Of a stretch of DNA of 54,578 nt, positions 1,866-39,520 are shown in pieces. The translations under genes and the position numbers were made by a program. The stretch is from a virus (Duplodnaviria; Heunggongvirae; Uroviricota; Caudoviricetes): IMG/VR virus record IMGVR_UViG_3300013383_000019. One strand, 5' to 3'. The notes beneath the pieces are model-generated. The model ran no database searches and was not told the DNA's origin. It was given only the letters and a program-made list of their open reading frames with translations. Position 1 is the stretch's first letter. Each line of letters starts with the position of its first letter.

Positions 1866-2774
1866 TCAATATATTTTTGCCTGCTGAAGCAAGGCTCTGA
1901 ACGCTTCGGCCTCGGCTCTTGTGTCGAACCGGACGCCGACCGTGTAGGCACTAGGCTCGGATTCACCACGCACCGACACATAGGCGGCCATAACATACCC
2001 CGTTTGCCCATTGTACTCCACTTCGTACCACCCGTCCGTGATCGTTTCCGTGCTCAGGATATTCACTTCAGCCCCATTAGGAATCTTCAGAATCCGGTCA
2101 GCCGAAGCGCCTGGATATTTCCGCATATTGAGCGCGCCGCCGTTCGCGGTCGTTACCGTTCCAATCATTGTTATCGGCACCTCTTTTTCTTGCGCGGGGC
2201 GTATTTCGCACCCCGGATAATAAAACGCGAGAATTTCCTCGCAGGTTTTGCCGAGCGTGCCCGCCGCGTACTTCGCGCCTTCCTGGCTCATGCCCACGCC
2301 GTGTCCCAACTTCTTTCCGTTTGTAGCCGCCAAGTCCCACGGGTCATCCTGCGAAGGCAGGTATGGGAGCGCCGTTGAATTCCAACGCTCCGCGTTGCTG
2401 ATTTCGCGCCCGCCATTTGACTTGCTGAACGGGCAGCTTGTCAGAGGTTTGCCGTCATAATAGAGCACGAGTCCGGCCGTTGCTTTTACGCCGCGATGCG
2501 CGTTTTCATAAGCAGGGTCTACAGCCCGCTCCGCCCGATACGCCTGCGCCGTAGAGGACGCGTCGCTGATGGGCACGCCCTTCGTTAGATACGGGAGCGC
2601 GTATGTTCGAGCCGCGATGGTCTGTGCTTTGCATGCCTCCAGCGGGGCGACTCCTATCTCGCTCGCCACAACGCCCAGTAAATACTGCTCGAAGGGGATG
2701 GAAACAACATCCCCTTTGGCAGCATGATAATAGTCCGCGTTTGTTTTACGCGTGAGCTTAACCTTGATGTTCAT
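1866..2774 (-). CDS. SpoIID/LytB-domain cell-wall hydrolase with C-terminal SH3b (endolysin)
   Basis: EQYLLGVVASE, KAQTIAARTY and GHGVGMSQ.GA...LAFYYPG SpoIID motifs; LNMR..P...WY.V.YNG..GYV SH3b. Confidence 0.85.
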   Translation of the reverse strand: MNIKVKLTRKTNADYYHAAKGDVVSIPFEQYLLGVVASEIGVAPLEACKAQTIAARTYALPYLTKGVPISDASSTAQAYRAERAVDPAYENAHRGVKATAGLVLYYDGKPLTSCPFSKSNGGREISNAERWNSTALPYLPSQDDPWDLAATNGKKLGHGVGMSQEGAKYAAGTLGKTCEEILAFYYPGCEIRPAQEKEVPITMIGTVTTANGGALNMRKYPGASADRILKIPNGAEVNILSTETITDGWYEVEYNGQTGYVMAAYVSVRGESEPSAYTVGVRFDTRAEAEAFRALLQQAKIY

Positions 2775-3175
2775 TATTCAGCCTGTTCGTCATTATTAAA
2801 CGCTTTGGCGAGCTCCTTCAGTGCCGCGGCACTCATCTGTTTCAGCGCCGCCTCAATAGCCGCGCGGTCGACCTTTAGCCCCGCCTGTTCCAGTTTCTGT
2901 CCGATGAGGGCCCACAGTTCGTCGTATTGCTTGGTGAGCTTGTTCTTGTTGAAATTCTTTCGAACTACGCCCGTCACGATCGTGGTCAACAGGCCGAGCA
3001 CAAAGCATAGCACCGCCACTGCCAGTTCGGTCAGGTCGAAAGCACCGGCAGCGTCCGGTTCAGTCACAGGTGCCACAGGAGCGGTCGGTTCAGCCGCTGT
3101 CTCCGCCGCGGCGATACCAACGCATACTGTCATCATAAAAACCTATGTGAGCAAAATGCAAAACACTTTATTCAT
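2774..3175 (-). CDS. Signal-peptide-bearing, LL-H holin-like membrane protein with in-frame TAG at codon 11 (3143-3145)
   Basis: AAGGAGG RBS, MNKVFCILLT*VFMMTVCVGIAAAE joins ORF 2774..3136; internal TM and IEAAL..M motif. Confidence 0.8.
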
Positions 3176-3189
3176 AATATTTCCTCCTT

Positions 3190-3507
3190 TTAGCGCGCAA
3201 AAACAATGTAATTTGTAATGGACGACATTGTTCCACTGGTTGCGGTAAGCGTCAGTTTTGTGCCCGACAAAACCCACGTTGCATACGCGCCGCCATTCGC
3301 AGTTTTTGTAGTAACTGTTCCGTCTTTCGAATAAGACCAGATTTCACGAGAGTACCCACTCGACACACTGTAATCCGCCACGCCCACCCATTCAGTCGGA
3401 GCGAACCCCAGATCAAATGTGAAGTTGCCGCGGTCAGCAGTGCCAGCCTCAAAGAAAATTTTCGCGCTCCCGCCGCCACTGCCTGTGGCCAAAGGCTGCA
3501 TGATCAT
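3190..3507 (-). CDS. Hypothetical tail-associated protein (105 aa)
   Basis: AGGAGGG RBS, beta-rich Ser/Thr/Gly composition, lies in the tail fibre block. Confidence 0.7.
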   Translation of the reverse strand: MIMQPLATGSGGGSAKIFFEAGTADRGNFTFDLGFAPTEWVGVADYSVSSGYSREIWSYSKDGTVTTKTANGGAYATWVLSGTKLTLTATSGTMSSITNYIVFAR

Positions 3508-3518
3508 AGTATCCCTCC

Positions 3519-4280
3519 TTATACCGGTACGCGGATGTAGACGACGCCTTGGTAACCCGCACCAGCGGTACCGGTATTTGGCCCGTAAGTTCCCATAGAA
3601 CCCGCACCATATCCACCGCCGCCAGAACCATAAAATGTCGCAGCTTTGCCATTGATCGAGTGACGCGAACCGCCCTGCCCACCGCCATAATTACCACCAG
3701 CGCCAGCGTCGCCGATACCGCTTGTTGACTTTGCCCCGTTGCTACCGTTCGAGCCGCCAGCGCCGCCATTGTATTGCCAACTATTATCGTCGGAGGAATA
3801 ATTCACGCCGCCACCGCCGCCGCCTGCGCAATGACACCTAAAGTTTGTCGTGTCCCCGAAAGGGTATTTAGTTATCCCGTCGCCTGTGGGAGCGTTAAAG
3901 TTTGCGCCAATATTTCCACCGCCGCCACCTGTGCCCCCGTTGGCTGTTGTCGTGCCATTCGCACTGACAAGTGAGCCAACTGAGGTATTCCCGCCGGAAC
4001 CGCCTATGGCAACCACATAATCACAGTGAAGGGACTGAGCGTCTACCTGCGCGCAATACGCGCCAGCACCGCCGCTGTAATACGAGTAGGTTGCCCCGCC
4101 CCCGCAGCACCACACATCCACATTCTTCGCCGTCCCCGTCACGGTCAGCGTGCCAGAGCCGGTCAGCGTATACAGGTCATACGTCACGCCACCGGAAGTG
4201 ATCTGCTTGAGCGTGTAAGCACCGGTATAGGTGAACTCGGCCTTTCCCGCCTTGCCGGGCAAGCTTATATTCAATATCAT
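3519..4280 (-). CDS. Glycine-rich tail/receptor-binding protein, paralog 1
   Basis: Start MILNISLPG after AGGAG RBS (ORF track start at 4403 too early). GGGGA repeats, C-terminal GAGYQGVVYIRVP. Confidence 0.8.
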   Translation of the reverse strand: MILNISLPGKAGKAEFTYTGAYTLKQITSGGVTYDLYTLTGSGTLTVTGTAKNVDVWCCGGGATYSYYSGGAGAYCAQVDAQSLHCDYVVAIGGSGGNTSVGSLVSANGTTTANGGTGGGGGNIGANFNAPTGDGITKYPFGDTTNFRCHCAGGGGGGVNYSSDDNSWQYNGGAGGSNGSNGAKSTSGIGDAGAGGNYGGGQGGSRHSINGKAATFYGSGGGGYGAGSMGTYGPNTGTAGAGYQGVVYIRVPV

Positions 4281-7141: not shown

Positions 7142-7398
7142 TCGTCATCCGCTCCTTCCAGAATTGCAATTGCTTCCGTGACAGCCGCGCTGTCGCCGAT
7201 GGGCAGCGTGACCTGTTCCCCTTCTATATTGCGCGTCCAAGCACTGCCGTTAAAAAGATCACCGACCGTCAAGCCAAGAGGCCCTGCGTCGATCAGTACG
7301 CGCCCCAGCGCGATCTGCAGCTCACTTTGCTGGTCTTCGCGCGCCACAATTACATTTTCAACCATCGTATGGTCCGTCGATAAAACTGCAAATTTCAT
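7138..7398 (-). CDS. Small tail-fibre-associated protein (86 aa)
   Basis: AGGA RBS, ATGA overlap with the next gene. Confidence 0.7.
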   Translation of the reverse strand: MKFAVLSTDHTMVENVIVAREDQQSELQIALGRVLIDAGPLGLTVGDLFNGSAWTRNIEGEQVTLPIGDSAAVTEAIAILEGADDE

Positions 7399-7423
7399 TC
7401 CTTTATATCCTCCTGTTATTCAA

Positions 7424-12842: not shown

Positions 12843-13184
12843 TCATCCCCCTTCGTAATTTACCGCGTTGATCTTCGGCATTACGTCAAAGGGGCCGTTG
12901 TATGTCGCGGTGCGGCGCTTCTCTCCGACAAACTCAATCGTAAGGTCGTACGTCCAATGCCCCTTCGGTATCTTGGCCGTCTCTTCATACGATATCGTCA
13001 GCGGATAAGCCCCCTATTCCTCGTCGTAATGAAGCTCCTGCTGGAACTGCGCCGCCCGGCAGGTAAAGTAAACGGCGGCAATCCAGGCCGGATTTATCGC
13101 TTCGCCAGCGTCGTCCAGCAACGTAAACGCGCGATCAACAGAATCGCCCTGCACGAATTCAATCGCGGCAGAGGTATCGTTCAT
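12843..13184 (-). CDS. BppU-like small baseplate protein (113 aa) with in-frame TAG at codon 57 (13014-13016)
   Basis: GGAGGTG RBS; MNDTSAAIEFVQGDS...HYDEE*GAYPLTISYEETAKIPKGHWTYDLTIEF...VNYEGG, ending at a TGA abutting the next gene. Confidence 0.8.
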
Positions 13185-13281: not shown

Positions 13282-14457
13282 TTATGCTGTCGTTGTATCC
13301 ATCGCCATGACGTTCACAGTCACCGCATCCGCGGGCGCGTCGTCGATGCACGCGAACGTAAGGCTTCCCGCCGCCTGCGCGGAACAGTAGATTCCGCTCT
13401 CCCGCCACGCAGCCACCGAAGCCGGCGCGGGTTCCACAATAATTGTGTTGCTCGCCGTTACCATGTTCAGCCCTGTGCTGATGGTCTGCGCCTTCTCAGT
13501 CCATCCCGCCGCCGTCAGGGTGATGGACGTAACGGTCGGAGGAGCCGCATAATCTAGCCCCGCCACAGCCAGCGTCACCTTTCCGCCGGTCGCCCGCAGC
13601 ATGCCGGAACGCTGTGTCCCTGATGTGTTGGGGAAATCGGTCGCCGTGTTCGCCGTGATCTTGTTCGGTCCCATAATATTCTTCGAGGCGGGCGTTGTGT
13701 AGCCGTCGATGGGTGCCCAGCTCAGCGTACCGTCGTCCGCCACCGTGGGCACAAACGCAGGCCCCGCAACGCCCTGAGGCCCCTTGATGTTCGCAGCCGC
13801 CGGTGCGGTTTCTGTGTTGTCTTTTGTCCAGCTGATTCCGCCGTCCTCCGCCACGGTCGGCTTCCATACGTCGCCCGCGGGGCCTTTGATATTCTTTGTC
13901 GCGGGCGTGGCGTAGCCTTCAATCGCGCTCCAGCTCAGGTTGCCGCTGTCGTCCACGCTTGGAATGAACGCGGGGCCTGCGGGGCCATGAAGAGATCCCA
14001 TGTTCAGCCATGCGCTGTTGTTCCACATGTAGACCTCGTAAGCTCCGGCTGTGCCCACTGCATAAAAGTCGCTCTGCGCGGGGTTTGACACGCCCGCCTG
14101 CAAGGCCGCTAGCGTCGCGTACACGCCCTTGATTGTAAAGTTCTTGCCGGGATCGCCCTGTTCGCCCTTCGGTCCCGTGATGTTGCGTGCCGTCGGGTTT
14201 TCCAGTTCAGCATTGTTTGTCCATGTGATATTGCCGCTTGCATCCACCGTGGGGGTGAAGGTCGCGCCCCTGCGGCTGATAAGCGAATAGTTCGGGTCGT
14301 CGTTCGCGCCCGTCGGAGCCGTGCCGCTCACGTCTTTAAGCACAATGTAGCCGTTGCCCTCATATTCCACAATGTCCTATTTTTTGTATTCCGCGCTCGC
14401 ATCGTATTTGCCGCGCGGTACGGTTACAACGCGGCCGAGAGAAATTTTGTCTGCCAT
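13282..14457 (-). CDS. Tail fibre with collagen-like repeats (391 aa), in-frame TAG at codon 27 (14377-14379)
   Basis: AGGAGAG RBS; MADKISLGRVVTVPRGKYDASAEYKK*DIVEYEGNGY is the common phage N-terminal motif LG.V...RG.Y.....Y..LD.V.Y.G. Confidence 0.85.
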
Positions 14458-15495: not shown

Positions 15496-16878
15496 TCACT
15501 CTCCCGTGTCCAGCTGTAAATACAGGTAGCCCTTTGGCAGCACATAGCTGTCGGAAGGCTCCGACGTCCCCGTCCAGATTTCGCTCCGGAGGAACGCGTC
15601 CGTCAGCTCCCGCTTCGTCGTGCCAGTGCCATGATACATCTTCCAGTCCGCTGAAATCTGTACCGCGTCCTGCTCGTTGCCGATCATTCCAAAGGATACC
15701 CCGCGCCCACCGGCCGGAAAGAAAATCGGGTATATACCGGAAGAAAGCGTTGTGATTTTCGATACCGTCGAAAGCTTGTCGCTTACCGTAATCTGTATCT
15801 CGTGTACCACCGGGTCTTCCGTCGTCGGAAACTCTACCGCATATGCCTGCGTAACGTCTACGTCCTGCGTGCCCAGTGCCGTCCACGCCTCGTCGCCCAC
15901 CGTCCGGAATTCGACCTTCACCACTTTGCCGCCGCTGGTTACCGGTTCCAGCGCGTTCTTCCCGCCCAGCGGATAAAAGTTCACGCTGCAGCTTGCGCTC
16001 ACGTAATTGCTTTCGTCGTCCGGCATACAGTCGTCCGTGCTTCGATAGGCTTTCACGTCGTAGATCGAGGGCGAGCTGTAGTCGAGCACCTTCAGCGTCT
16101 TCCCCGTCCATGGTCCCGGAAAGTCGACTCCTGTTGTGGAACTGGCGATTTCGAGCGTTACATCTTCCGTTGTCACGCGCCGCTTCGCCGAGTCCAACGA
16201 CGTCGCATAGCAACGCACTTCGTCTCCAAAGATATCGATCTTCTCAAATACATGGCGCACAGTTAGTTGGGTTTTACTGCCGTATACGCAGCTGTTGCGG
16301 GATGCCTCGGGCACCGCGTCGTATGAGGCCGGTATCGAGTCCAGCTCTCCGTCGGACGTATATTTGATCGAGAAGGATTTATAATAACGCCCCACAGATA
16401 CCGCGAGGTCGCCAAAGTGGTAATACCCCGCCTTGAATGTTGCCGTAACTACAACGTCGCTCATCTTGCGGATGCAGTAAAGCGCGCCGTCCTGCAGCTC
16501 CCATTGCTCCGCCGCGCCGCCGCTCAGGTTTCGCACACCGAATACGGCGCTGGGTATTGTAACCGCTTCCTTGGGCGGCACGTTTACGCTGAACCGGGCT
16601 TGCTTCGTCGCCAGCGTACGTTCCGTGTCCGGCGCGATAATGCTGAGCGTAACCAGCACCGAACAGGATTCCGTCAGCGTCTCTGGAATAGTGAATGTAA
16701 AAATACCTTCCATGTCGTGCGTATACATTCGATCGTATTCGTTCCCGCCGACGTTAAACCGCAGATGGTTGTATAGCCACCTCATGTTTCCGCCAAATGT
16801 TATCGTCTGTTTTTCTCCCGGTTTTAAGGTGTCGTATTGTACCTTAATCCAACCCTCGGTTTCTTGCTCAACGCTCAT
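15496..16878 (-). CDS. Minor tail / baseplate protein (DUF859-like, 460 aa)
   Basis: C-terminal EIQITVSDKLS...GRGVSFG motif resembling DUF859 siphovirus proteins; follows the Tal-like gene. Confidence 0.65.
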   Translation of the reverse strand: MSVEQETEGWIKVQYDTLKPGEKQTITFGGNMRWLYNHLRFNVGGNEYDRMYTHDMEGIFTFTIPETLTESCSVLVTLSIIAPDTERTLATKQARFSVNVPPKEAVTIPSAVFGVRNLSGGAAEQWELQDGALYCIRKMSDVVVTATFKAGYYHFGDLAVSVGRYYKSFSIKYTSDGELDSIPASYDAVPEASRNSCVYGSKTQLTVRHVFEKIDIFGDEVRCYATSLDSAKRRVTTEDVTLEIASSTTGVDFPGPWTGKTLKVLDYSSPSIYDVKAYRSTDDCMPDDESNYVSASCSVNFYPLGGKNALEPVTSGGKVVKVEFRTVGDEAWTALGTQDVDVTQAYAVEFPTTEDPVVHEIQITVSDKLSTVSKITTLSSGIYPIFFPAGGRGVSFGMIGNEQDAVQISADWKMYHGTGTTKRELTDAFLRSEIWTGTSEPSDSYVLPKGYLYLQLDTGE

Positions 16879-23416: not shown

Positions 23417-23581
23417 TTATTCCTCTCGGAGGCAAAGCCGCTCGAATTGTTCAGCCGATTCCATAATTTCGTTGAACTTCACAGCATCGAAAGCCTCTTC
23501 TTTTATTCTCTGCGCTTCTTCTTCACTGATAAAGTGAGCACCCGGTTTCGCAACGGTGTAAACCATCATCATATCATTCAT
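23417..23581 (-). CDS. Small acidic protein (54 aa) coupled to the PBECR4 gene
   Basis: GGAGG RBS; start overlaps the upstream stop. Confidence 0.6.
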   Translation of the reverse strand: MNDMMMVYTVAKPGAHFISEEEAQRIKEEAFDAVKFNEIMESAEQFERLCLREE

Positions 23582-24245: not shown

Positions 24246-24249
24246 ACGT

Positions 24250-24630: not shown

Positions 24631-24632
24631 AT

Positions 24633-27600
24633 TCACTTGGATAACCTTATGCCGCCCACAGACTGAACCCGTCCGGATTTTTCCAGCACATGGTCGAAGA
24701 ATTTTTCGGCCAGTTCGTCATAGTCCGTGTCGTTGTCCAGCTTGTCCACCTGGATTACAACGTCGCCGAACGTCAGCGTCGGCTGAGAGCGGGAATTCGT
24801 CTCCGCGCCAAACGCCGGCATTGTCGGTACGTTAATTGTTTTGATCGCGTGCAGCGTGTCGATCATGTCCTCAAACAGTTCGGTCTGATAAGGCGAAAGG
24901 ACGCGCTCCGGCTTGCTCGGCGTACCGTCCAGCCATGCAAGGCCGGTCTTTGTGTTCAGGCCGCCCGAAGCATATTGCGATACGGTTGTTTTCCCATTAC
25001 CGCTTGCCGAGGGTCTAAGCGTGTCCTGGCTCGAGTTCCGAGGCGCGCTGCTGGTGCTGCTATAGCTTCTAATGGAACTGATAGCACCGCTGAGCATTGT
25101 TTGGTACTGAGCGCGCACCTGCGCCTGCCCAGCCGAGCCTCCCGCCGCCGCCAGGTGATTATTCAGCCAGCGCTTAGCGATTCTCTTAGCCGCGCTGTTT
25201 GCGGCAGACCTAGAGCTATATCCGGTATACACCTGGCCGTCAAACGTAAAAGACCAGAGCGTCTTAGGCTTCGAGCTGCCGTTAGGCTTTTGAGTAGAAC
25301 CAGGGCTGGGACTCGGACTCGGGCTGGAATCATATCCACCGTCATAACTGCCGCCATTACTCCCCGACGCCGGCATCACCGGCTGGTAATCATAGCTGCT
25401 GATATCCACCGCAACATCCTTGTAGGCGTTCTTCAGGTTCTCCAGCTGCTCTTTCCACGCGTCGACGTATGCCTCCGCCTGCAGCTTGCCCGCCGCCTTA
25501 TAGTCCGCACTGTTGTCCATCAGGAACTGGATAATCGCGTCGTCGCCCTTCGAGATAATTTCTTCAATTTCGTCCCAGTATGTGACGATCGCGCCGCGCA
25601 TGTCGTTGAGCATATCCTGCCAGCCGTTTGTGATATCCGTGCGCGTGGCGTCCGTGGAGTTTTTATACTCTTCGCTGTTCTCCTTCAGCCACTGCAGAAT
25701 TTCCTCGTCGGACTGCGCCATGATCTTCTGCACTTCTTCAATGAAATTGCGCGGGTTCGCCAGCAGGTCTTCGTAGTATTTTTCAATGTAGTCGGCGTAT
25801 TCTTCCGTGCTCGTGATCTGTTGATCGATCGCGTCCTGCTGGGCCTCGACTTCCTTCTCCGCCGTGTCCCATGCGATTTCGTCGCGCAGGTCTTTAATCT
25901 GCTCCTGCAGTTCCATCGCTTCTTTGCGCCGCGTCGAGTCGGCCGATATGCGCGCCAGTTTCGCTTCCAGCTTTTTCAGTTCAACCAGCTTTTCTTCTTC
26001 TTGCTGCGCTTCCTTGCGCGCGTTCAGCTGTTCCTGCAGCGCCTGCTTTTCTTCTTCCAGCGCGTCCTTTTTCGCGTCCGCCGTCTCAAGGATTTCGTCG
26101 CGTTCTTTTTCGTATCGCGCCTTGATGATATCGAGTATCGCTTCCTCTGTTTCGATCGTGCCCTGCAGCATGCGCTCCTTCAGCTCTTCCCGGTCCTCGA
26201 TCGCTTCCAGAATCGTGTTCCGCAGGTCGATCTCCATCTGCCGGATCTTGTTCTTCCATTCCTTAATTTCCTTGTTCAGTGCTTCGATATCGTTCCGGTT
26301 CTGCTTCAGCTGCTTGCTGTATTCCATGTGCTGCTGCTGCAAGCTCTTCAGATCGTCCGCCGCCTCAGAATAACCTTCCGCGGAGGTACTCATCGCGTTG
26401 ACTTCCGCCCGCTTGGCTTCCATCAGGCTTTCGATCTTCGAGAGGTTCGCCTGTATCGTATCCGTGTTAGCCTGTATCGCCTGCTTTTCGTATTCGATAC
26501 ATTTCAGCACGCCCTGAATTTCGCCGCGGCTTTCGAAGTACGCTTTCTCCAGCTCGATGATGGCTTTCTTGTGGTTCTGAATCGTATCAATCTGGTCGAG
26601 CACGTCCAGAAACCGCTCAATCTCGGAGGGGCCGCTGTTCCCGCTGCTGCCACTGCCTCCGCCGTAAGAACTGCTGGGGCTGCGGCGGCTGCTTCCGCCT
26701 CCGCCGCCACCACTGCGTCGGCTGCTGGAACCGCTTCTTCTGCCGTTGCTCTTCGAGCCAAGACCGGTGACGTTTACCTTGCCATTTTTGTCCAGGCTTA
26801 CAGTCGCGCCGTTTACGCTTGCCAGCTGCTCAATAAGCCCAAGAATAGCATTGGCAGTCTCATTGCCCTCAGCCGCCAATGCCTTTAGCTGCGAAATCCA
26901 TGTGCTGGGGTCAAGACTGATTCCTGTCAGCGTCAGCATTGAGCTGATCAACCATTCGACGCTGCTGGTCGCCATGTCCGTGTCCCCCGCCAGCAATGCC
27001 GCCGCCATAGCCAAATCATATTCAGAGTTGATCGCGAATCCGCAATAGTCCGCCAGATTCGCCAGTGCCGTAGTGTATGCGTCGGTGCCAGCCTGCGTCG
27101 TGTCCATCACGGTCGCAAGGTCTGCCTGCGCCAGCGCCAGGTCGTTCAGCTTTGTCCCGATGCCGGCGATGGATTTCAGATACTCCGCCTGGGACTTCCC
27201 GCTGTTGCTGATTACATCGACGGCTTCCTCCCAGATTTTATTCTGCTTGGCAAGCTGCGTGCCTTCTTTTGTCAGCCCCTCACGCGTCAGTTTCTTCGCC
27301 GCGTCCAGCGCGTCTTCGTGTGCGTCCGACATGTCGCCCAAACTGGTCACATAATCCTTGATCGCGTCCGAGCCTTCCAGCAATGTCTTCTGCATTGTTT
27401 TGCCGAGGCTGTTCCATACGGCGATAAACGCCTCCTCCGAGCCGGTGTCCAACGCCTCCTGAATGTTCGCCAAGGCCGCATTGTATTCCGTCGTACCGTT
27501 CTGCGCCTCATAAAGCGCGTCTGCTGTTTCCTGCAAGCTCCCGCGGCATTGTTCAAGCATTTCCACATAAGCTGATACAACGTCTTCCCAATCACTGTCC

Positions 27601-30600
27601 GGGTCGAAAAGTACGTTCCAGAAGCTGCCGTAGTCCTCGCGGAAGCCTTCTGCCAGCGTGGCGTTTTCCGTGTACATCTCGTAGATCTTTTCCCGCAGCA
27701 TTTCAATGGCTTCGGCTTTATCCTCCAGATTTGCCGAATCCATGAATACACCCGCCAGATCGTTGATCTGCCCAGAGTAACTGTTATCCGCCGCGGTCTG
27801 CGCTTCCGCGTTCAGCTTTTCGTTTTTCGCATATTCGGCCTGCTCCGCAAAGAAATCTTCCTTCGACGCCGAGGAAATATTCGCCAGCATTTCATAGACC
27901 TTTGCCAGTGCTTCCGCCCACGCACCCGTTTCGTCGGTCACTTCTACCGTCCCGGCGAGGATATTGTAAAGTTCAGGATAGGTCTGCGCGAAGCTCTCCT
28001 GCATGTCAGAAGACCATGTGTTAAATTCCTTCCGCGCGTTTTCCAGTCCGCCCGAAAGTCCCATCACGCCATTGGCGAACGTCGGTACCTGACCTTCCGT
28101 GAACGCCTTGTCCAGCGCGCCCACCTGGTCGGCAAACCCGGCCTCTTTCGCTTTCGCCAGCGCTTCCTGCGCTTTCAGATTTTCCGCCATCTCCGAACGC
28201 TCTTCGGCGTACGCCACCGTGGTTCCGTTGATAATACCCTTCAGGTAGCTGTATGCGTCGCCTTCCTTCATCAGCCCTGCGTAGATATCGCCCAGCATCG
28301 GGTAGGCTTTCGTCATCTCTTCCACCAGGTCTGCGTTCGCCGCATGCGCTTCATCCATTGCGGTCTTGAAAAGGCTCACGTCAAATTTCTTCGTGTCCGC
28401 GTTCATCGATTTGCTCAGAATGTCGCTCGTCGCATCCCGGTAATTGTTCTTCGCCGCGTCGGATGCTTTCTGTTTCTCCAGCCATTCCGCGTAGTATTTG
28501 CCGAAGCTCCCCATTTTTTCGGCCGCCGCATCCGCGGCCTCCCCCACGGCCGTAACCGAAGCCACCGCCGTTTCTTTCCACTTAACGAATTCCTCTTCAT
28601 TATAGTCGGGGAGCAGGTCGATCTTCGCGCCTTCAATTTCACCGTTCTCAACTTGCGCGTTGTATTCGGAAATATATCCGTTGATACCGTCGACGATTTT
28701 CTTGTAGCCGTCATAATCCACAGCTTCCGGCGCTTTCAGCATCTCGTTGTATTCGTCCATCAGCTTGGTGAATTCCGGCGAGGAAGCGAGTTCAGCTAGT
28801 GTGTCTCTGCACGTCGTGAACATTTCCGTGACCGAACTGAGCAATTCCTCTGTAACCGCTGCCGGGTTCTGTTCATACAACTTCTGCAGGAATGTAAACA
28901 GCTCGTCGCTGTATTCGCTCAGCGCGCTCTTGAAGTTGTCCGGGAGCACGTCGGCCATATCGGCTCCTTCAAGATTTTGCTTTACCGCGCCCACATAACT
29001 TTTAACCAGAGAAGCGGCCTTATTCAGCATTTCTTCCGTCAGCGCGTCTGCGTCTCCGCCAACTGAATTCCGCATCGATTCCACGATCGTGCCTATGAAC
29101 GAATCGATATTCTTCGTAATTTCCGCCGGCACATCCATAAAGCTGCTGTCCTGTCCGAACGCGTTCAAGCTCTGTTCAATGCTGTCCCACGCGTCGGAAA
29201 TACCGGCAGCCGCTTTCTCTGCGCTCGCCCCAACCAGCGTGTTGAGGTTCATCATCTCCATGTTGATGTCGTTACTGAGCTTATTAACGTATTGGCTCGC
29301 TTCAAGATATTCGTCTGCTATCGAATAATAATTCTCGGCGTCCGCAGTCATACCGCCCCACCATTCTCGGTTTTTAGCGCCCAGACTGCTGCTTTGAATA
29401 TACATATCCTGCAGATAATTTGTGAACCCGCGTTTAGATGCTTTCGCCGGATCTTCCAGCCCCTGTGTATATTCATCCCAGTATTTCAGTACATTCTTCT
29501 GGAGATCAACCTTGTCCATCTCCGCGTACGCGTCCTTAACCGTCTGAACCTGCTCCGCGAACTTGCTGAACGCGTCCAGCTGCGAGATCGAATTCTGCAG
29601 GTCCACCTGTTCCCGCAGTTCCTCGTTCATCGCCCGGATAGCTTCGCTGCCGCTGTTGTACTGGCCTTCCAGTCCTTCCAGCTTTGTCTGTAAAGTATAG
29701 GAGGTTCCGGACAACTGCGCGAATATCGCGTCCATCCGCTCCGTGTCGCTCGTCGTCTTGTTTTGCTTTCCGGCGAGTTTCGTGTATTCATCGATCAGCG
29801 GGGAGATCGTCCCGGTGTAATCCTTCAGCGTGCTCAGCTGTTCGCTGTAATCCGGCAGCTCTACCGCAGACGCTTTTTTGATCGCGCCGGTAACGGCCGT
29901 GATAACCGTAACAAGCCCCGCCAGCGCAGTGACGATCAGCCCGATCGGGTTCGAGGCCGATGCAATGCCAGCAACAAGCCCAATGCTTTTGATTGCCTTA
30001 ATCAGCGATACGATCTTGGTGAGCACCACCACAACTGCTCCAAGCGCAGCTGCCGCCGCGGGGATTGTAACGTTAAACCCTCTCAGGGATTCCGTGCCGC
30101 TCGCGATCAGGTCGACAAATCCGGCCAGTCCGTCATAAGCGCCTTTCATCCAGTCCGCGCTCAGCAGTCCATAAAGGCTTTCCAAAGACGACTTCAGCCG
30201 TCCCTGTGCCGCCTCAACCGATTCCATATACACGCTGTATTTCTGCGTCGCTGTGCCGGCCGCGTTCAGCGCGCCCTCATAAAGTTCAAACGCACGGCTG
30301 CCGCCCTCTGCGCCCTTAGCCATGTCGCTCATCAATGCGAGGAAGGTGTTCTGCTGTCTTGCGCCGGCGATGGTGGTCGAGATATACGCCTTCTGTTTTG
30401 CGTCCAGCGTGTCCCATTGTTCGGCAATTTCCGTCATGATGTCGGACATGCTGCGCCAGTTGTTCTCTTCGTCCAGCAGTTCAATACCGAGCGTGCCCAG
30501 CGCTTTTGTCACGTCGTTGATCTGGGTCGCGTCCTCTTCATTAAAACCCTTCTGCTTTATGGAGTGCATGCGCGCCATCAGAGAGTTGAACGCCGTACCG

Positions 30601-32641
30601 ATTACCTCAGGTGCCTGCCGCGTTTTTTCGCTGACGGTCGCAATATACGCGCCAAGCCATTCAAAGCTCACGCCAAATTCTTCGGCGGACGCAGATGCTT
30701 TCTGCATCGCCACACCAATTTCATCGGCCTTTCTGTTACTTTTATGACCTACAAATATTCTGTAGGCGGATAGGATTTTCATCCTACCTCTGCAACTTAA
30801 ATAAGGTATGTTGCAGAACAGACTGTATCTTCATCCCTAAATAGGGAGTCCACCGTAGCTACATCATCACTGATGCAACATTCAGTCGTTACCGCGCTTA
30901 ACACGCATCGGAGTTACCCTCCTCAGGGCTTTCCCCGAACAAGTGGATTCTTTTATAACACATTACTGTGTATACGGGCTATTTGTCGTTAACCCGATGC
31001 CGATTCGTCTCCCAAGTATGCAAACACATCTACGACCTTCTGCGCAGACAAGTCCATTGTATTGGTGGCTGCCGTAACCAGTTCAGCCGCCTCTGTAAAT
31101 TCCAGCGAACTGATCTTCGCGTATTGCGTCGCCGCCTTGATACGCCGGTTTGTTTCGTCCTCATCCAGGCCCTGCCGCCAGAATTCCACGGCCGCCTTCG
31201 CAATGTCGGTAGAAGATACGCTCATCTCTTTTGCCAGCGTGCGGTATTCCGCGCCCAGCTTTGCCGCCTGCTCTTCGCTGTACCCCGAAACAATTCGGAT
31301 CTCGTTCATCAGATCATAGTATTCCGACGCGTAGGAGATCGCATCCTGGAACATGTTCTTAAGCGTATTGGTTGTCCATGTAATCGCCTGTTCTGCAAGC
31401 TTGGTTCCAATTTTGTCAAGGAACTGCCCGTTAATATCCAGCATTTCGCCCTGCTTGGAATACAGGTCGTTGACCTGGTGCAACGTGTTCTCAATTGCAG
31501 TAAGTTCTTCTTGGGAAAGCTGGAGCTTTTTCAACTGCTCGGCTACCTCATCGGTGGCTTTCTTCGCCTCATCCCCGACTTTCGCCCACGCTTCCATGCC
31601 GTCCTTATCTTTGTTCGCGTAAGACCTGCCGATACCGCTCAGCGCGGTCTGCATTTGCGCTAACGCCTTCTGTGCTTTCGCCAGCTGCTCTGCCCCGGCG
31701 TTTCCAGTGTTCGTGTTCTGCTTTGCCAGCACGTCGGAAATTTTCTGCTCCAGCGTAAGCAGCTGCTGTTTCCGTTCGGTTGTCAGGTCAAGCTTTTGAA
31801 TTTCCTCGCTCTGCTGGGTCAGCAGCTTTTTAGACGCTTCAATCCGCTCCTGCCAGTAGGACGTATCCTGTCCGCTTTTCTGTGCGCTGTTGTAGTTGCG
31901 GACATACTCGGCCAGCCGCTTGTATTCCTCCGTCATCTGCTTCAGGCCGGTTTCTCCGCTGCCGCTTTCTTTCAGCGCGCTCTGATATTGCTTGATGATT
32001 TTCGCGCGCTCTTCGCTCAGCTTATTCAGGTTTGAAAGCTGTTTCGCTTCGTCGCTCAGCGTCGAAGACTGTTCCCTGCTTTTTGCGATCAGTTCGCCGT
32101 ATTTCTGGATTTCCGAGTCCAGCCGCTTCGCCTGGTCGCTGCCCTCCGCAGCAGAAAGCCGCTGCGTTCGCAGAGAATACATTTCCTTAAGATAGCCGAT
32201 CTGTTCCTTATAAAGCGCGTTCGCCTTATCGATTTCCTTTGCGAGCTCACCCTTGGTTGTGGTCGTCCGGCTCAGCTATTCTCCCTGCTTCCGAACCTCC
32301 GTTATCGCAGCCCCGAGGTCTTTATAGCCTTTGGTGGTCTGCGTCATGCTGCCGTCTTTCGCTAGCTTGGAGGTGACGCTCATCACCCGTTCAATCTCGG
32401 TTGTCGCGCCGGCAAATCCAGTAGCCATTTCCTTCCCGGCCTGCCCGCCCGTCTTGGCCGCGCTCTGAACCTCGTCCTTGAGCCGCGTCAGCATCGCCTT
32501 AATCTGCTTCTCCACTACGTCGCTCATGTTCAGGTTCACGCCGGTGCCAATAGACTTCAGAAGCTTATTGACTCCCTCGACGTCCTTATTGAGCTTGCTC
32601 AGATCCAGCCGCAACGAGGCGATATATTTTTCGTCCGCCAA
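24633..32641 (-). CDS. Tape measure protein, about 2581 aa: exon 32641-30992 (TAG at codon 122, 32276-32278) plus exon 30728-24633
   Basis: ORFs 32276..32641, 30989..32182 and 24633..30782 join: KQGE*LSRTTT readthrough is in frame, and splicing restores AYLGDESASG|ADEIGVAMQK in the TP901-type tape measure domain. Confidence 0.9.
30729..30991 (-). ncRNA. Group I intron (263 nt, no ORF) in the tape measure gene
   Basis: P1 CGGGU|UA with UAGCCCG (U-G at splice site), P7 GACUG/CAGUC (GAAGAUACAGUC), terminal G, frame restored. Confidence 0.9.
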
Positions 32642-32675
32642 ATTCCTTCACTTCCTTTGTCTTATTGGGATTCGT

Positions 32676-32704
32676 TTGACAAACGCAAACGAACTTGCTA
32701 TATT
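32676..32704 (+). promoter_or_regulatory. Sigma-A promoter with extended -10
   Basis: TTGACA-17 bp-TATATT with TG at -15/-14. Confidence 0.85.
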
Positions 32705-32726
32705 ATTATTAAAAGGGGGTATTGAT

Positions 32727-33419
32727 TTGCTGGGCATATTTGTGTGGTTCCTTGTGGCACTTCCATTCTTATGGCCTGTATACAAACACTGGCGCACCGC
32801 TAAAGAGATGATCCCGATACACGACAAGGCGCAGGAAGCGTTCCATAAGGAATGCGACCGGCTTGGCATTCAATGTACCAAAGAATTCTCCGACGTCTAC
32901 AGCACCTCGTTCATCCGCTGCGACGATAAATCCGAACGCATCGCCGTATATGCCGGGAGATCGAACCGTTTTTCCGTTATCCCTTATAGCGATTTCTTCT
33001 CACTCTATCCTGACGCCTGGTTCAAAGACCCACCCCCCAAAAAGAGCGGCGCGAGCAAAACTCAATATGTAACGACCCGTATCGGCAACACATCAGTAAC
33101 AACGAAATACGACGGTATCACGGCCTTTAGTGCGCGGGTCGACGGATATAAGCCTGCTATTACGCCGATTCGCGACGGCGTTATCTGTCATTACTCCCCT
33201 GCTTTTGTTTTTGATATGACTGAGAACGTTGGTCATTCCCGTATAAAAAAAACAAAAGAATTCTGCGAAGCTACCGATAAGGAAATGCGCTACATCCGTA
33301 CCTATTCGTTTAACACTACCCCCGGTCAAACTTACGCTGAATGGAAAAAGATCGATGATGAGTTAACCCGCGCCCGCGCCAACAGACCCGACCCCTATGG
33401 GAACTACCATCTGAAATAA
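32727..33419 (+). CDS. Moron: membrane-anchored protein (230 aa) antisense to the tail operon
   Basis: AAGGGGG RBS, TTG start, N-terminal TM (LGIFVWFLVALPFLW), own promoter. Confidence 0.75.
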   Translation: MLGIFVWFLVALPFLWPVYKHWRTAKEMIPIHDKAQEAFHKECDRLGIQCTKEFSDVYSTSFIRCDDKSERIAVYAGRSNRFSVIPYSDFFSLYPDAWFKDPPPKKSGASKTQYVTTRIGNTSVTTKYDGITAFSARVDGYKPAITPIRDGVICHYSPAFVFDMTENVGHSRIKKTKEFCEATDKEMRYIRTYSFNTTPGQTYAEWKKIDDELTRARANRPDPYGNYHLK

Positions 33420-33439
33420 TAAAACCAGGTTTTCCGGTT

Positions 33440-34882: not shown

Positions 34883-35515
34883 TCATTTTTCAAAATCAGG
34901 TTTCGGAAGATAAGAGAATTCTGCGGGGTAAATAATTCTATCCCAATTGACTTTCCTCGCGTAGTAGACATTCTTCGAATAACTGCTCTTCGACGCCCGC
35001 ACAAAAACGGCAATAACTTGATACGGGGAAACAACACGTTCCCGTATGTCGTCGTTCAAAAAGGTATTCGGCACATATATTTTTCTTTCCGCGTCAAGCT
35101 TAAATCCTACGCAAGCACGACTGCTGCCTATAAGTTTCTCTGTGTATAGACTTATTCCGCTGCCATTGAAGTCCCCCCCCATCATTTTTGCATTCAAGAA
35201 TTGTCCCGAAAATGCATACGATAAGATTCGCAACTTCAGCTCAGTTGTCCCGTCTTGAGCAAAATCAAAATCGTCCGGACTTAATTTTTTCGCCAGGCAA
35301 CGATCATAAAAAGTATTTGCATTGTATTGCTGCGTCCCAAGAAGCTTCACACCTGTTAAATGCAAAAAGTTCGTTTTATCAAACGCAACTTCCACATAAA
35401 TAACGTGATTGCTAGACGGTTTATATCCGAGGAACAACATCTGCTTGTTTTCATAATTCATATGATAATTTTCAGCAGCGGAACAGATCGCTGCAATCGC
35501 CTGCGATTTATGCAT
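34883..35515 (-). CDS. PBECR4-like predicted ribonuclease, copy 2 (about 210 aa)
   Basis: A.NY......K..LF......EV.F...NFLHLTGV, F..DGTTELKL and YVPNT.L..DIR motifs; start may be 35515 or 35536. Confidence 0.8.
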   Translation of the reverse strand: MHKSQAIAAICSAAENYHMNYENKQMLFLGYKPSSNHVIYVEVAFDKTNFLHLTGVKLLGTQQYNANTFYDRCLAKKLSPDDFDFAQDGTTELKLRILSYAFSGQFLNAKMMGGDFNGSGISLYTEKLIGSSRACVGFKLDAERKIYVPNTFLNDDIRERVVSPYQVIAVFVRASKSSYSKNVYYARKVNWDRIIYPAEFSYLPKPDFEK

Positions 35516-35590
35516 AGCTTTTGTTGATTCCCCCATAAATTTATGGGAAGACCGCAACACCGCAGCATTGCCGGTCTTCCCAATTGTCCA

Positions 35591-35722
35591 GTTTTTCTGT
35601 TGCCCGCCAACTCACGGCTCCTTCCGTGCCAAGCGCGTTCTGCCGTATCATTTCTGGTTTTTCTGTTGCCAGCCAACTTACAGCTCCCTCCGCACCAAGT
35701 ACGTTCTGCTGCATCAATTTCG
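35591..35722 (-). repeat. Two tandem 66-nt repeats with compensatory base changes (candidate RNA antitoxin)
   Basis: Units 35591-35656 and 35657-35722; stem UACGGC/GCCGUG versus UGCAGC/GCUGUA; both end AACAGAAAAAC. Confidence 0.85.
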
Positions 35723-35771
35723 GGTTTAGGTGCTGAACACACCAGCGGGATGCCGCCCGCTCTCCAAATCC

Positions 35772-35875: not shown

Positions 35876-35886
35876 TCCTAAAAATC

Positions 35887-37335
35887 TTACGCCCAGTCGA
35901 CAGTTGTCTCCTCGGTCTTGGTAACGACGTTGCCGTTTGCGTCGAACGGCTCATAGGTCAGCGACCACATCTTGCCGTCTGCACGCTTCGGGTCGATGGA
36001 GCTGAAGGTAACGCTGTTGGTTGCAGCTGTCTTATCATTTATCTTCAACATGGTTCGCTATGCCATGCCCGCGTCTTTACGCTGCTGCATCTTTATATAT
36101 ACATGCAGATGAGACTATATCTTCCTCCTCTTTCTCAGGTAGGAGTCTTCCCATTTGGAGCGCCAATCACTTGCGCCCTACTCCCTTGCGGGATAGTCGT
36201 TAGGCTTTTATGGAATTAATCCTTTTTAGCACGGTGAGTTATCTTACCGGCGCTGCATCAACCGATAAGACTTTCTCCGTTTAAGGAAGGTTTTGTCAAG
36301 CACATTTCTGTGCAGGGAACCTATCTGTTAAGCTCGTGTCGAAACCCGGTGCCGCGCTTACGCGGACACGGTAAAGATGAATCTGAATTTCACCCTTCTG
36401 GGTAGATTCGGTGCAGTCAGTACCACTGGAATACCTTATGTTCACACAAGGTCGCTACTTCTTGTGCCGCTGCGGTGTACAACTTCGCAGCCGCTGCATC
36501 TTTATATATACATGCAGAGCAGACTATATCATGCTCCAACTTGGAGCCTCACCATTTCGAACGCCAATAGCTTGCGCCCTACTCTACTCGCTTCTTCGGT
36601 TTCCCTATGCTTTCGATAGTCGTTAGAGTTTCACAGTCAACGCTTGGTTGATTGATTACTACGGCAGGTTACCCTCATCGAGGGCTTTCCCCGTTTAGAT
36701 GAGTTATTCGATAAGGATCTCTCCTTAAAGGGTCAATTCAGTTTAACCGGCCATGTGGCGTACACCTCGCCCTTGGACATCGGGGTGGTTGTGCTGATGC
36801 CGATGCGGGTCGCGCCCACGCTGCGGCGCTTGTAAGAAACGCGGATGGTTTCGCCTTCGGTGTAGTCGCCTTCGGCGAAGGTGATCTCCGTCTTGGGTTC
36901 AGTGTCAGCTGTGCCCTTGGTCACCGCAACGGCAAATTTACCCACGGCAGCGGCTTCCGCCCGCTCCATATTACGGATCGCGACGGACTCAACCTGCACC
37001 TCGTAGGGGATTGTAATCTTGTTTTCCGTAACGTCGTAGCGCTTTGTCTCGAACTTACCGTAGTCGCCGGTCTGATCAGTCACCGCGTTCGCCATGGTAA
37101 ACATATCCATGGTAAACTGGGCGGAAGCAAAGCTCAGTTCCAGCGTCTTGTCGGTATCAATAACCGCCAGCGGGAAGAAGCTGTGACCGCCGTTGATGGT
37201 GATCGAGTTAGATGTGTTCGAGAAGTTTGTGCTGGTCTATTCGTCGAAGTTGAACACTGCGCCATCGCAGCGGATGAAGTCAACGTTTGCAACGTCGGCG
37301 ATATAACCATCATATTTCGGGATGTAAATGGCCAT
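35887..37335 (-). CDS. Major tail (tube) protein, 280 aa: exons 37335-36745, 36433-36331, 36035-35887; TAG at codon 33 (37237-37239)
   Basis: AGGAGG RBS; MAIYIPKYDG...FNFDE*TSTNF; spliced product TWPV|YSSGTDC...GFDTS|YKTAATNSVTFSSIDPKRADGK; exons total 843 nt. Confidence 0.88.
36036..36330 (-). ncRNA. Group I intron 2 of the tail tube gene (295 nt, no ORF)
   Basis: P1 GAGCU|UA with UAGGUUC, P7 GACUA/UAGUC (GAAGAUAUAGUC), terminal G. Confidence 0.9.
36434..36744 (-). ncRNA. Group I intron 1 of the tail tube gene (311 nt, no ORF; junction ambiguous by 1 nt)
   Basis: P1 GGUU|AA with UUGACC, P7 GACUA/UAGUC, terminal G; shares TCTGCATGTATATATAAAGATGCAGC and GTAGGGCGCAAG blocks with intron 2. Confidence 0.9.
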
Positions 37336-37392: not shown

Positions 37393-37878
37393 TCACACGG
37401 TTGTTTTATAGGAAAAGGTTATGTGATACCTTTTGTATCCCACAACCTTGGTCCACAAATTATATTCGTTTTCAAAGCGAAAACTCATATGCTGTATATG
37501 CTTCTCCCTGAGCAGAAGATATTTCAGCCGGTCGGCGATCAGGTGATACCGCTTCTGCAGGCGATCGCTCGTCGTGTTATACACCGCGTCGTCCTTGACG
37601 TAAATGTCCATTTCTTTGTAATGGAATTTCACGTTCGGGTTCCGCAGCGTGCCGCCGTCTGAGTCGTAGCAAATAATACGAACCTTTTCGTCCGTAATTA
37701 ACTCGTCCGGGTTCTCGCCTTCGATAAAATAGTTCGCGACAAAATCTATAACGTTTGCCCGCTCGGGGACCAGCATCAGCGTTCGAAGCTTCTCGTCCCG
37801 GAAGAGAACATACCGGATAATGTTATTCCAGTTGTCCGCCCATGTTCTGGTTTTTTCTACCATGCGTTCATCCGGCAT
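37393..37878 (-). CDS. Tail terminator / completion protein
   Basis: Directly upstream of the tail tube gene; start MPDERM chosen from the RBS. Confidence 0.65.
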   Translation of the reverse strand: MPDERMVEKTRTWADNWNNIIRYVLFRDEKLRTLMLVPERANVIDFVANYFIEGENPDELITDEKVRIICYDSDGGTLRNPNVKFHYKEMDIYVKDDAVYNTTSDRLQKRYHLIADRLKYLLLREKHIQHMSFRFENEYNLWTKVVGYKRYHITFSYKTTV

Positions 37879-37891
37879 CCAATCAGCCCCC

Positions 37892-38458
37892 TTATTGCGT
37901 ATGTATGTTTCCGGAAAATATGCTGTCCGGCAAATTGGCAGCCGCTGCATCAAGTGCATTCACCGCTCTCGCAGCGATTCTTTGCGCCGCGTTTTCGATA
38001 AAAAAATTTCCAACCTGATTAAACTGTTCAGGCAGCGCGTATTCAGACTTCGCGGCCGACGGCTGTTTCCCGGTGATGTCGTCGTCCCAGACAGAGCGCC
38101 CCGGAGGACCTGCCATGATAAAAGAATTCCCGACAACAGACCCGCTGCCGACTGCAATAATCATCGCCCGAACCTTTTCCGCCAAACTTTTCCGCCCCAG
38201 CAGAGCGGGCGCGCCGGCTCCGAGTTCAATGTAGTCCGTCGCGATTTCGCGCAAAACTTCCGTCATAGAGTCGCGCAGTTCTTCTCGCCATGCGGGCTTT
38301 CCGGGGCCGTCGCCATGCATCGTAACCATGACTTCCTGCTTCAATATCTCAATCAGCTGGTCTTCGATGCCTTCCAGCACCTTCACATAATAATCGCGCA
38401 GCGCAGCCTTGACCGCCGCCTCATTTATCGTCAGCTGGTTAATTTTGCTTTCCGCCAT
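37892..38458 (-). CDS. Neck / tail completion protein
   Basis: Synteny in the head-tail block. Confidence 0.65.
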   Translation of the reverse strand: MAESKINQLTINEAAVKAALRDYYVKVLEGIEDQLIEILKQEVMVTMHGDGPGKPAWREELRDSMTEVLREIATDYIELGAGAPALLGRKSLAEKVRAMIIAVGSGSVVGNSFIMAGPPGRSVWDDDITGKQPSAAKSEYALPEQFNQVGNFFIENAAQRIAARAVNALDAAAANLPDSIFSGNIHTQ

Positions 38459-38461
38459 TAA

Positions 38462-39247
38462 TTATTCACCGGCCTCATCCAGATCCCCGCCCGCAACGCG
38501 TTTTGCATGAATCGTCAACACACCAAATTTACGATTAATTTCTATTTCCGCCGCCGAGATATTGATAACGCGGTACGTGAATCCGTTAATTACAAACTGG
38601 TCGTTGATCTCGATGTTCTGCGTCTGGGAATTCCATTGCAGATAGCACGTAATCAGGTGGTCGGCGTGAATACCCGGGATGCCCTGCGACATCGAATAAT
38701 CCGGCCGCCCCGCATATTCCGCATGAATGCCCGGAATGTTGTCCGCTACCACGATTTCTTTCGCGTCCCAGATGAGAAATCCATTCGCGTCTACCATCTC
38801 TTCGCCCGGTCGGGTAAATTTGAATACAGTATTGCATTCAATCGACTGTGTCGCCTGGTTGTTCGGATGGTTCTGCACATTCCAGTTCAGCAGGAAAATC
38901 ATCCCGTCGTCGCGCACAACCATATCGCCCTTGTAAATCGGGATATCGTGCGTCACCTTAAAGTTGGTAGACATGTCTGAGTTACCAATCTTCGACTTCC
39001 AGTCAATAGGCGTCTGCTGCGCCCGCAGGTAGGTCGGCACATAGTCCGCTTCCTGCGCTTTGTACCAGTCATGTATCAGTTCAAACGTAAAGTTGACGTG
39101 TGGGATATCGTGCTGCAGCAGCCGCCTGAAATCCGCATCCAGCGTAGGCGGCGGCCGGAAGTCCCGGCGGGAGCCTCTCACAATTGCGGGGATAGTTTTC
39201 TTCGCGGCCTTTATTTCGTCCGTTCTCCCCCATACGACAGATGGCAT
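38462..39247 (-). CDS. Head-tail adaptor / closure protein (261 aa)
   Basis: Synteny; beta-rich I..GD.V...DG..FL and I.INDQF.I.G..YRV motifs. Confidence 0.65.
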   Translation of the reverse strand: MPSVVWGRTDEIKAAKKTIPAIVRGSRRDFRPPPTLDADFRRLLQHDIPHVNFTFELIHDWYKAQEADYVPTYLRAQQTPIDWKSKIGNSDMSTNFKVTHDIPIYKGDMVVRDDGMIFLLNWNVQNHPNNQATQSIECNTVFKFTRPGEEMVDANGFLIWDAKEIVVADNIPGIHAEYAGRPDYSMSQGIPGIHADHLITCYLQWNSQTQNIEINDQFVINGFTYRVINISAAEIEINRKFGVLTIHAKRVAGGDLDEAGE

Positions 39248-39520
39248 TTACTCACCGCCTTCCACAATGTTCTGCGGCAGGCGTTCAATTTCGCCGGCCT
39301 TGTCCAGCAGCTTGTGCTTTATCCTGCAAAACGCCGCCCAGGATTCATTAGACCATTCGCTCTTCGGCTTATTGTCGTTCAGCAGATAAGCCATATCCTC
39401 AACATCTGTGATCAGCCGCAGCTAATCCATTCGCAGCATGCCCGTGTACTCGTCCAGCCGGTAGCTCTTATCATATTGCGGCTCCAGCTTTTCATTATAA
39501 TATGTAACCTTAACCTTCAT
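39248..39520 (-). CDS. Head-tail block protein (90 aa), in-frame TAG at codon 33 (39422-39424); missed by the ORF track
   Basis: GAGGTG RBS; MKVKVTYYNEKLEPQYDKSYRLDEYTGMLRMD*LRLITDVEDMAY...VEGGE-TAA fills the gap exactly and abuts the next ATG. Confidence 0.82.

Follow-up and report, generated by a model that had tools for sequence, protein, structure and literature searches.

The window analyzed here is the whole of a 54,578-nucleotide stretch of phage DNA (IMG/VR record IMGVR_UViG_3300013383_000019, Caudoviricetes), and the subject of this report is a set of in-frame TAG (amber) codons, nearly all of them close to the starts of the genes that carry them, together with the phage-encoded suppressor transfer RNA, tRNA(CUA), that would decode them. 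The phage is SPbeta-like and about 119 kb long; the window covers its late half, with the structural and lysis genes, and nearly all genes are on the minus strand. A terminase identical to that of the window was found on a 119-kb contig. From high to low coordinates, PHROG and Pfam searches place a sigma-factor-like gene, a lysin-domain protein and a six-tRNA cluster, then an exonuclease, the terminase large subunit, the portal and the capsid, followed by the tail tube, the tape measure, a low-G+C toxin-antitoxin-like insertion, the distal tail protein (Dit) and a 1224-aa Tal-like protein, and lastly several fiber-like proteins and a SpoIID/SH3 lysin with small membrane proteins on either side.

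In-frame TAG codons were sought in stop-to-stop frames delimited by TAA and TGA only, with inspection of starts and Shine-Dalgarno (SD) sequences and of small open reading frames (ORFs) on both strands. Thirteen were found, in 11 of the 52 genes, and 12 of them lie within the first 60 codons; since all long TAA/TGA-delimited frames were inspected, there is no ascertainment bias against late TAGs. The genes concerned, with the suppressor tRNA and the recombinase at the left end of the window, are the following.

50569..50823, plus strand: 84-aa membrane protein, twin A, TAG at codons 4 (50578-50580) and 10 (50596-50598)
51034..51288, plus strand: 84-aa membrane protein, twin B, paralogue of twin A, TAG at codons 4 (51043-51045) and 56 (51199-51201)
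52463..53245, minus strand: function-unassigned gene, TAG at 53084-53086, which is codon 32, 42 or 54, the start being ambiguous
39248..39520, minus strand: 90-aa protein of the head-tail region (g39248), TAG at codon 33 (39422-39424)
36745..37335, minus strand: YomU-like tail tube, exon 1, TAG at codon 33 (37237-37239), spanned by a phrog_2729 match
24633..32641, minus strand: tape measure, 2581 aa after removal of an insertion, single TAG at codon 122 (32276-32278)
20586..21665, minus strand: Dit (phrog_33, PF05709), TAG at codon 29 (21579-21581)
13282..14457, minus strand: tail fiber protein, TAG at codon 27 (14377-14379)
12843..13184, minus strand: 113-aa protein (g12843; phrog_5774/1084), TAG at codon 57 (13014-13016)
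2774..3175, minus strand: membrane protein g2774, in the holin position directly upstream of the SpoIID/SH3 lysin, TAG at codon 11 (3143-3145)
1536..1850, minus strand: 104-aa membrane protein g1536, downstream of the lysin, TAG at codon 15 (1806-1808)
49824..49900, minus strand: tRNA(CUA), amber suppressor (ARAGORN; Rfam tRNA model, 39.9 bits)
1..1119, plus strand: large serine recombinase, its 5' part outside the window, ending at TAG 1102-1104

An earlier note on this DNA, made from the letters alone, had listed 14 TAG codon indices, and 13 of these were located (4, 4, 10, 11, 15, 27, 29, about 32, 33, 33, 56, 57 and 122); a second TAG at codon 10 appears in no credible gene, either in the frames or among the small ORFs of both strands, and several of the TAGs lie outside the range of 2774-39520 to which the pattern had been assigned. 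The remarks on sequence context hold, as CTG comes next after five of the 13 TAGs, and a GAN codon precedes six of them. The second tape-measure part, the 1224-aa Tal-like protein, the terminase, the portal and the capsid are free of TAG, as had been said, and the same is true of the 395-aa protein between portal and capsid that had been called a protease, a label for which there is no family match.

PHROG matches and tblastn alignments to relatives run across the TAGs, so that homology lies on both sides of them. In Dit, the 28 residues 5' of the TAG hold six positions (G3, F4, Y6, G8, H10 and P20) that are invariant in an alignment of 19 homologues. As the N-terminal sequence 5' of the TAG is conserved, the TAG-bearing genes cannot give a full protein without tRNA(CUA); judged from their sequences, all 11 depend on this tRNA for their full-length product, as the earlier note had proposed. 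The membrane protein in the holin position, g2774, has a good SD at its upstream ATG and none at the ATG just past the TAG. In the same gene (3136-3175, minus strand), the codon-11 TAG is followed by two methionine codons, 14 and 15, that no SD precedes, and a restart there would yield a shorter form, resembling the dual-start holin/antiholin pairs. Twin A has an SD, a near-consensus promoter (50452-50481) and a terminator-like hairpin (50805-50836), and twin B, 40% identical to it, has an SD of its own; the codon-4 TAG is common to both, and TAG makes up about 15% of the leucine (Leu) sites of the two ORFs, for which no homologues were found among the fetched relatives.

The amino acid for which TAG stands can be read from the relatives. 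Of 43 TAGs in relatives that face sense codons in the window, 31 face Leu codons (16 CTG, 5 CTT, 5 TTG, 4 CTC and 1 CTA), and the remainder are mostly opposite Ile, Val, Phe or Gln (3 Ile, 3 CAG); for the TAG-rich relative L089 alone, 16 of 24 aligned TAGs are at Leu and none at Gln. When the twin ORFs are aligned, the TAGs of one are faced by Ile or Phe in the other. These alignments indicate that TAG is leucine in this phage, as the earlier note had taken it to be. Glutamine, the meaning of TAG in genetic code 15, was considered and is ruled out by the same alignments (31 Leu against 3 Gln of 43), with the Gln/TAG pairs being single C-to-T steps. The window phage shows the marks of a stop-codon-recoded phage: a tRNA(CUA) of its own, homology across its TAGs and no TAG terminator on the late strand. 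On the minus strand, TAA closes 28 genes and TGA 22, and none of the 50 ends in TAG. The recombinase does end in TAG, in the window as in L092 and L093, with an in-frame TGA four codons further on in the window and L092. In G001, a distant relative that lacks tRNA(CUA) and whose complete genome of 111 kb carries terminal repeats, 12 orthologous genes are free of in-frame TAG.

Bacterial leucyl-tRNA synthetase (LeuRS) ignores the anticodon and recognizes its tRNAs through A73, the D arm and the tertiary shape. The window tRNA(CUA) has A73, a Leu-type D arm and a short variable loop, which make its charging with leucine by the host LeuRS plausible; its anticodon stem contains a C31-C39 mismatch. 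In L088, a 76-nt tRNA(CAA) adjacent to the suppressor (4478-4553 and 4706-4782) has almost the same D arm. Counterparts of tRNA(CUA) are found in L088 and L090, and the tRNA cluster heads the late block in the window and in both of these genomes. Since the L090 suppressor, a 92-nt tRNA with a long variable arm (7396-7487), differs in build from the type shared by the window and L088, two kinds of amber suppressor exist within the phage family. The window tRNA scores lower on the Rfam tRNA model than its L088 counterpart (39.9 versus 54.2 bits), and a weaker suppressor might accompany the very low downstream use of TAG in the window that is described below.

The position bias was assessed against a null made of all 1166 Leu-plus-TAG sites in the 52 genes. 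The first 60 codons hold 12 of the 13 TAGs and 22% of the Leu sites (binomial p 1.3e-7), and on average a TAG stands at relative position 0.20 (permutation p 9e-5), so that the claim of a concentration near 5' ends beyond that expected of Leu codons is upheld, and it recurs in relatives. The further claim that TAGs come usually one per gene by design is not supported, since the 12 early TAGs fall in 10 genes and random placement gives a mode of 11. An enrichment in tail and lysis genes, with the head genes exempt, fares no better: nine head and packaging genes would all be free of TAG by chance with a probability of 0.16, and relatives carry TAG in their capsid (codon 54 in L088 and L090), terminase (codon 35 in L088) and portal (codon 61 in L090) genes, with L089 having TAGs in terminase, portal, capsid and nearly all other head genes. 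The set of TAG-bearing genes varies among the relatives, and a TAG in capsid, terminase or portal may be present in one and missing from another.

Codon-level comparison was made with five relatives, L003 and L005 for the tail module and L088, L089 and L090 for the head module. Early placement and the share of TAG among Leu codons are as follows.

Window: TAG share 4.7% in the first 60 codons and 0.11% beyond
L003: 4 of 9 TAGs within 60 codons, against 9% of Leu sites (p 0.007); TAG share 9.3% in the first 60 codons and 1.2% beyond
L005: 4 of 7 TAGs within 60 codons, against 8% of Leu sites (p 0.001); TAG share 10.8% and 0.7%
L088: 6 of 9 TAGs within 60 codons, against 21% of Leu sites (p 0.004); TAG share 8.6% and 1.2%
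L090: 4 of 9 TAGs within 60 codons, against 19% of Leu sites (p 0.08, rank test 0.015); TAG share 5.0% and 2.0%
L089: TAG share 10.3% and 7.6%

The recurrence does not depend on shared sites, since among the 20 distinct TAG sites of the four TAG-poor relatives that are not common to the window, 8 are within 60 codons compared with 11.8% under the null (p 0.0013). In L089, TAG amounts to 8% of Leu codons and is spread along the genes (mean relative position 0.41, p 0.2). Because the share in the first 60 codons stays at about 5-11% across the family while the downstream share differs, the pattern is one of downstream depletion and not of 5' enrichment. The late TAGs that do occur in the TAG-poor genomes are in the tape measure (codons 109, 397 and 2438), in fibers (245 and 330), in the tail protein at 15496..16878 (codon 205), in the lysin-like protein at 51673..52461 (codon 227) and in two proteins of unassigned copy number, at 37393..37959 (codon 138) and 39531..39962 (codon 81). 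If tape measure, fibers and the tail and lysin-like proteins have the copy numbers assumed for them, late-TAG proteins are expected to be mostly low-copy; capsid and tube have only early TAGs in these genomes (codons 54 and 33).

Several individual sites persist between genomes. The TAGs kept across relatives are Dit codon 29 (conserved in L003-L007), fiber codon 27 (L003 and L005-L007), g1536 codon 15 (L091, L092 and L093) and g2774 codon 11 (L093, at 60% identity), and those of Dit and the fiber are TAG in three lineages at 70-90% protein identity. Elsewhere the tube TAG is common to L088, as is that of 52463..53245, where L090 has a TAG at the adjacent aligned codon; the tape-measure TAG is common to L003 and is CTG in L005; codon 57 of g12843 is TAG in L005 and CAG in L003; codon 33 of g39248 aligns with CTG or CTT in L088, L089 and L090; and a third small membrane protein (1258..1539) has Leu in the window where relatives have TAG. 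In L003, L005 and L088, 8 of 11 window TAGs are still TAG, whereas Leu codons other than TAG and CTG are kept at 28-51%. The sole synonymous exit from TAG is the transversion to TTG. Between the window and L005, four-fold sites have an identity of 43%; this divergence gives a rough neutral estimate of 60-78% for TAG retention, and 3 of 4 were retained. Site conservation was thus rejected as a proof of function, given the single synonymous exit and a retention close to the neutral prediction.

The bases around the TAGs are also biased. Over 53 distinct sites in the window, L003, L005, L088, L089 and L090, A precedes the TAG in 43%, whereas the figure for Leu codons is 14% (p 3e-7), and G is underrepresented there; T follows TAG directly at 3 of the 53 sites, compared with 15%. 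A T right after TAG makes a strong termination context in Escherichia coli. The bias could come from suppression context, from avoidance of CTAG or from mutation.

The explanation that we favor, at about an even chance of being correct, is that the 5' bias marks where a leaky stop is cheap and is not the mark of a purpose-built switch for late genes. UAG has been reassigned to leucine through the phage tRNA(CUA), presumably charged by the host LeuRS, which makes TAG a rare Leu codon whose decoding would compete with the host release factor 1 (RF1). Suppression being presumably incomplete, every TAG would yield some truncated product. In this cost model, a fragment shorter than about 60 residues would be cheap and could not join assembly, whereas a longer fragment of a multimeric virion protein would waste synthesis and may poison assembly. 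Short fragments being cheap and long ones costly, selection would clear TAG downstream, most strongly in high-copy proteins, and tolerate it near starts, with TAG drifting at a “free” 5-11% of Leu codons in the first 60 or so codons and in short genes. The dependence of 11 genes on the tRNA would then be a physical consequence of this distribution, one that may be exploited for lysis or toxic membrane genes. The constant 5' share, the graded downstream share, the shifting set of TAG genes, the random-looking counts per gene and the placing of late TAGs mostly in proteins expected to be low-copy are consistent with such tolerance, as are the rarity of T after TAG and the absence of in-frame TAG from the 12 orthologous genes of G001, and the 5' pattern by itself does not need a gating function. 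The earlier statement that the early TAGs form a translational gate rather than neutral recoding is not implied by these data, as the first-60 share in TAG-rich L089 is much like that of the rest of the family, the gene set shifts, the counts per gene fit random placement and retention of the sites is expected without selection.

A number of points weigh against tolerance. The loss of yield from termination is independent of position, so the model needs fragment toxicity or waste to dominate; if any termination is costly, one would not expect TAGs in the capsid and tube, which presumably are the virion's most abundant proteins; and L089 tolerates TAG everywhere. Three other observations fit a deliberate lock, namely the twin ORFs with TAG at about 15% of their Leu sites and a codon-4 TAG in both, the retention in relatives of an early TAG by both membrane proteins of the lysis cassette, and the reading of TAG as a stop by the recombinase. 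According to this rival explanation, which is a serious possibility and still somewhat improbable, early TAGs are selected and kept so that tail completion, lysis and toxic membrane proteins need the suppressor tRNA, either as a late checkpoint or as a safety lock against leaky transcription in the lysogen, with the 5' position minimizing the cost of the OFF state; it requires that tRNA(CUA) be timed, or be repressed in the lysogen. The dependence on the tRNA is real, with homology upstream of the TAGs and across them, and a gate would also agree with the conserved early TAGs of Dit and the fiber, with the SD before each twin ORF and the near-consensus promoter of twin A, with the backup stop behind the recombinase TAG and with the place of the tRNA cluster at the head of the late block. 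A hypothesis of this kind has been published for code-15 phages (10.1101/2021.08.26.457843), and a synthetic suppressor-tRNA feed-forward loop is reported to abolish leaky expression (PMC7969014). Nevertheless, the 5' density of TAG is no higher in the window (4.7%) than in L089 (10.3%), which uses TAG as an ordinary codon, the TAG-bearing genes are not a conserved set, with head genes gated in some relatives and not in others, the counts per gene fit random placement, and the retention of TAGs is explained by the single synonymous exit. The most novel form of the proposal, with a probability much like that of the gate, is that start-proximal ambers are a selected, cheap-to-abort lock on Dit, fiber, tape measure, tube, holin-like proteins and small toxic membrane proteins until Leu-tRNA(CUA) accumulates, in which case recoded phages of other, unrelated kinds would be expected to have this 5' design too, regardless of the amino acid.

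TAG might also behave like other rare or slow codons that gather near starts, through a translational ramp or weak mRNA structure. Other rare codons do show some of this tendency in the window, with 40% of AGA, 41% of CGA and 25% of TTA in the first 60 codons compared with 17-20% of the common Leu codons, but TAG is far more extreme (89-92%; against a null of 40%, 8 of 9 gives a binomial p of about 0.004) and the effect vanishes in L089, which together make a general codon effect improbable. An annotation artifact, with the genes in fact starting downstream of the TAGs and TAG acting as a plain stop, could draw on the ambiguous start of 52463..53245 and on the one claimed TAG that was not found; it is highly improbable in view of the family matches and alignments that cross the TAGs, the SD motifs at upstream starts with none at the downstream ATG of g2774, the presence of tRNA(CUA) and the lack of any late-strand gene ending in TAG. 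The tolerance of leaky TAG codons near starts remains the explanation that we prefer to these alternatives.

TAG is read as leucine in chlorophycean and Scenedesmus mitochondria (codes 16 and 22). The reassignment of codon to amino acid is the same as in the window phage, but the organelles are fully reassigned, with no conflict between the codes of host and parasite and no such competition with RF1. Literature searches gave no report of TAG standing for leucine in phages; in the Borges preprint, phages with a code unlike that of their host showed only TAG-to-Gln and TGA-to-Trp (10.1101/2021.08.26.457843), and a later survey of suppressor isotypes listed Gln, Trp, Ile and Tyr. The closest known systems are the code-15 gut phages with their own suppressor tRNA, for which a regulatory role in the timing of late and lysis genes or as a lysogeny switch has been hypothesized (10.1101/2021.08.26.457843), and proteomic validation exists for alternatively coded gut phages (PMC9523058). 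The window phage resembles them in having its own tRNA(CUA) and in-frame TAG in genes for structure and for lysis, in avoiding TAG as a terminator and in a lysogeny recombinase that uses TAG only as a stop, and differs from them in the meaning of TAG (Gln there, Leu here) and in its SPbeta-like lineage. On the evidence of its sequence it is an alternatively coded phage that carries its own suppressor tRNA, and it lacks the defining feature of code 15. The logic of the proposed gate is the same as that of the synthetic leak dampener, reported as a coherent suppressor-tRNA feed-forward loop in an engineered E. coli system (PMC7969014); a separate regulation of the tRNA is hypothetical in the window phage.

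Whether the recoding of stop codons in phages is regulatory or merely tolerated is an open question that has so far been argued mainly from which genes carry recoded stops, and the position within genes offers a second, independent read-out of it. No mention of a 5' position bias within genes was found in the code-15 work (10.1101/2021.08.26.457843). New here are this bias, its recurrence in relatives and the contrast that TAG-rich L089 offers, the gate hypothesis having already been published. Within the family, the genomes form a natural series that runs from TAG-poor ones in which the 5' bias is strong to a TAG-rich one that shows little or no bias. There is also a consequence for annotation, since gene callers set to code 11 or to code 15 both mistranslate these genes, in which the residue is Leu, and truncate their N-termini.

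The lineage is shown by a genome of about 120 kb with a YonB-type capsid, a YomU-type tube and a large serine recombinase. Precomputed Pfam hits on orthologues in relatives are to the YonB capsid, YomX_C and YomU tube families, and the recombinase domains are found in the L092 counterpart. These features it shares with the SPbeta-like phages of Firmicutes, to which it is only distantly related, as its terminase is 28% identical to those of the group. For SPbeta itself we know of no report of stop-codon recoding. Among GenBank phages, 7 kb of the head region had no blastn match and the best terminase protein match was 31% identical, and a scan of IMG/VR with the Dit protein alone gave no match. 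The terminase has hundreds of relatives. A scan of genome contigs gave a single distant hit, in a metagenome-assembled genome, which was left out of the comparisons.

Two of the TAG-bearing tail genes are interrupted. The tape measure is split by a 263-nt insertion without an ORF (30729-30991, minus strand), which starts after T and ends in G, and whose deletion restores a single frame of exactly the 2581 aa that the earlier note had given. It is absent from L003 and in L005 is more conserved than the flanking exons, and it is probably, from its sequence features, a small self-splicing (group I-like) intron. The tail tube gene is in three pieces (37335-36745, 36433-36332 and 36033-35893, minus strand), as found by tblastn with the tube proteins of L089 and L090. 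The two insertions between them, each of about 300 nt, have repeat motifs (families D1, D3 and D5) in common, which also occur in the tape-measure insertion. No known Rfam family is matched by these intron-like insertions.

The tape measure and Dit are separated by an insertion of 43% G+C (21829-24245, minus strand), which L005 lacks at this place and which contains a toxin-like gene (phrog_3066), a regulator-like gene of helix-turn-helix/metalloprotease type and a phrog_18856 gene. Next to it, 5' of the 223-aa gene 23574..24245, are 74 open codons without ATG, GTG or TTG (24246-24467, minus strand). On the other side of the tape measure, the 798 nt 5' of it (32642-33439) contain no credible minus-strand ORF and are overlapped by a 313-aa plus-strand ORF (32478..33419); this stretch could hold chaperone exons or a further insertion. 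Finally, a 66-nt tandem pair, 80% identical, lies at 35591-35722 within the ORF 35458..35742.

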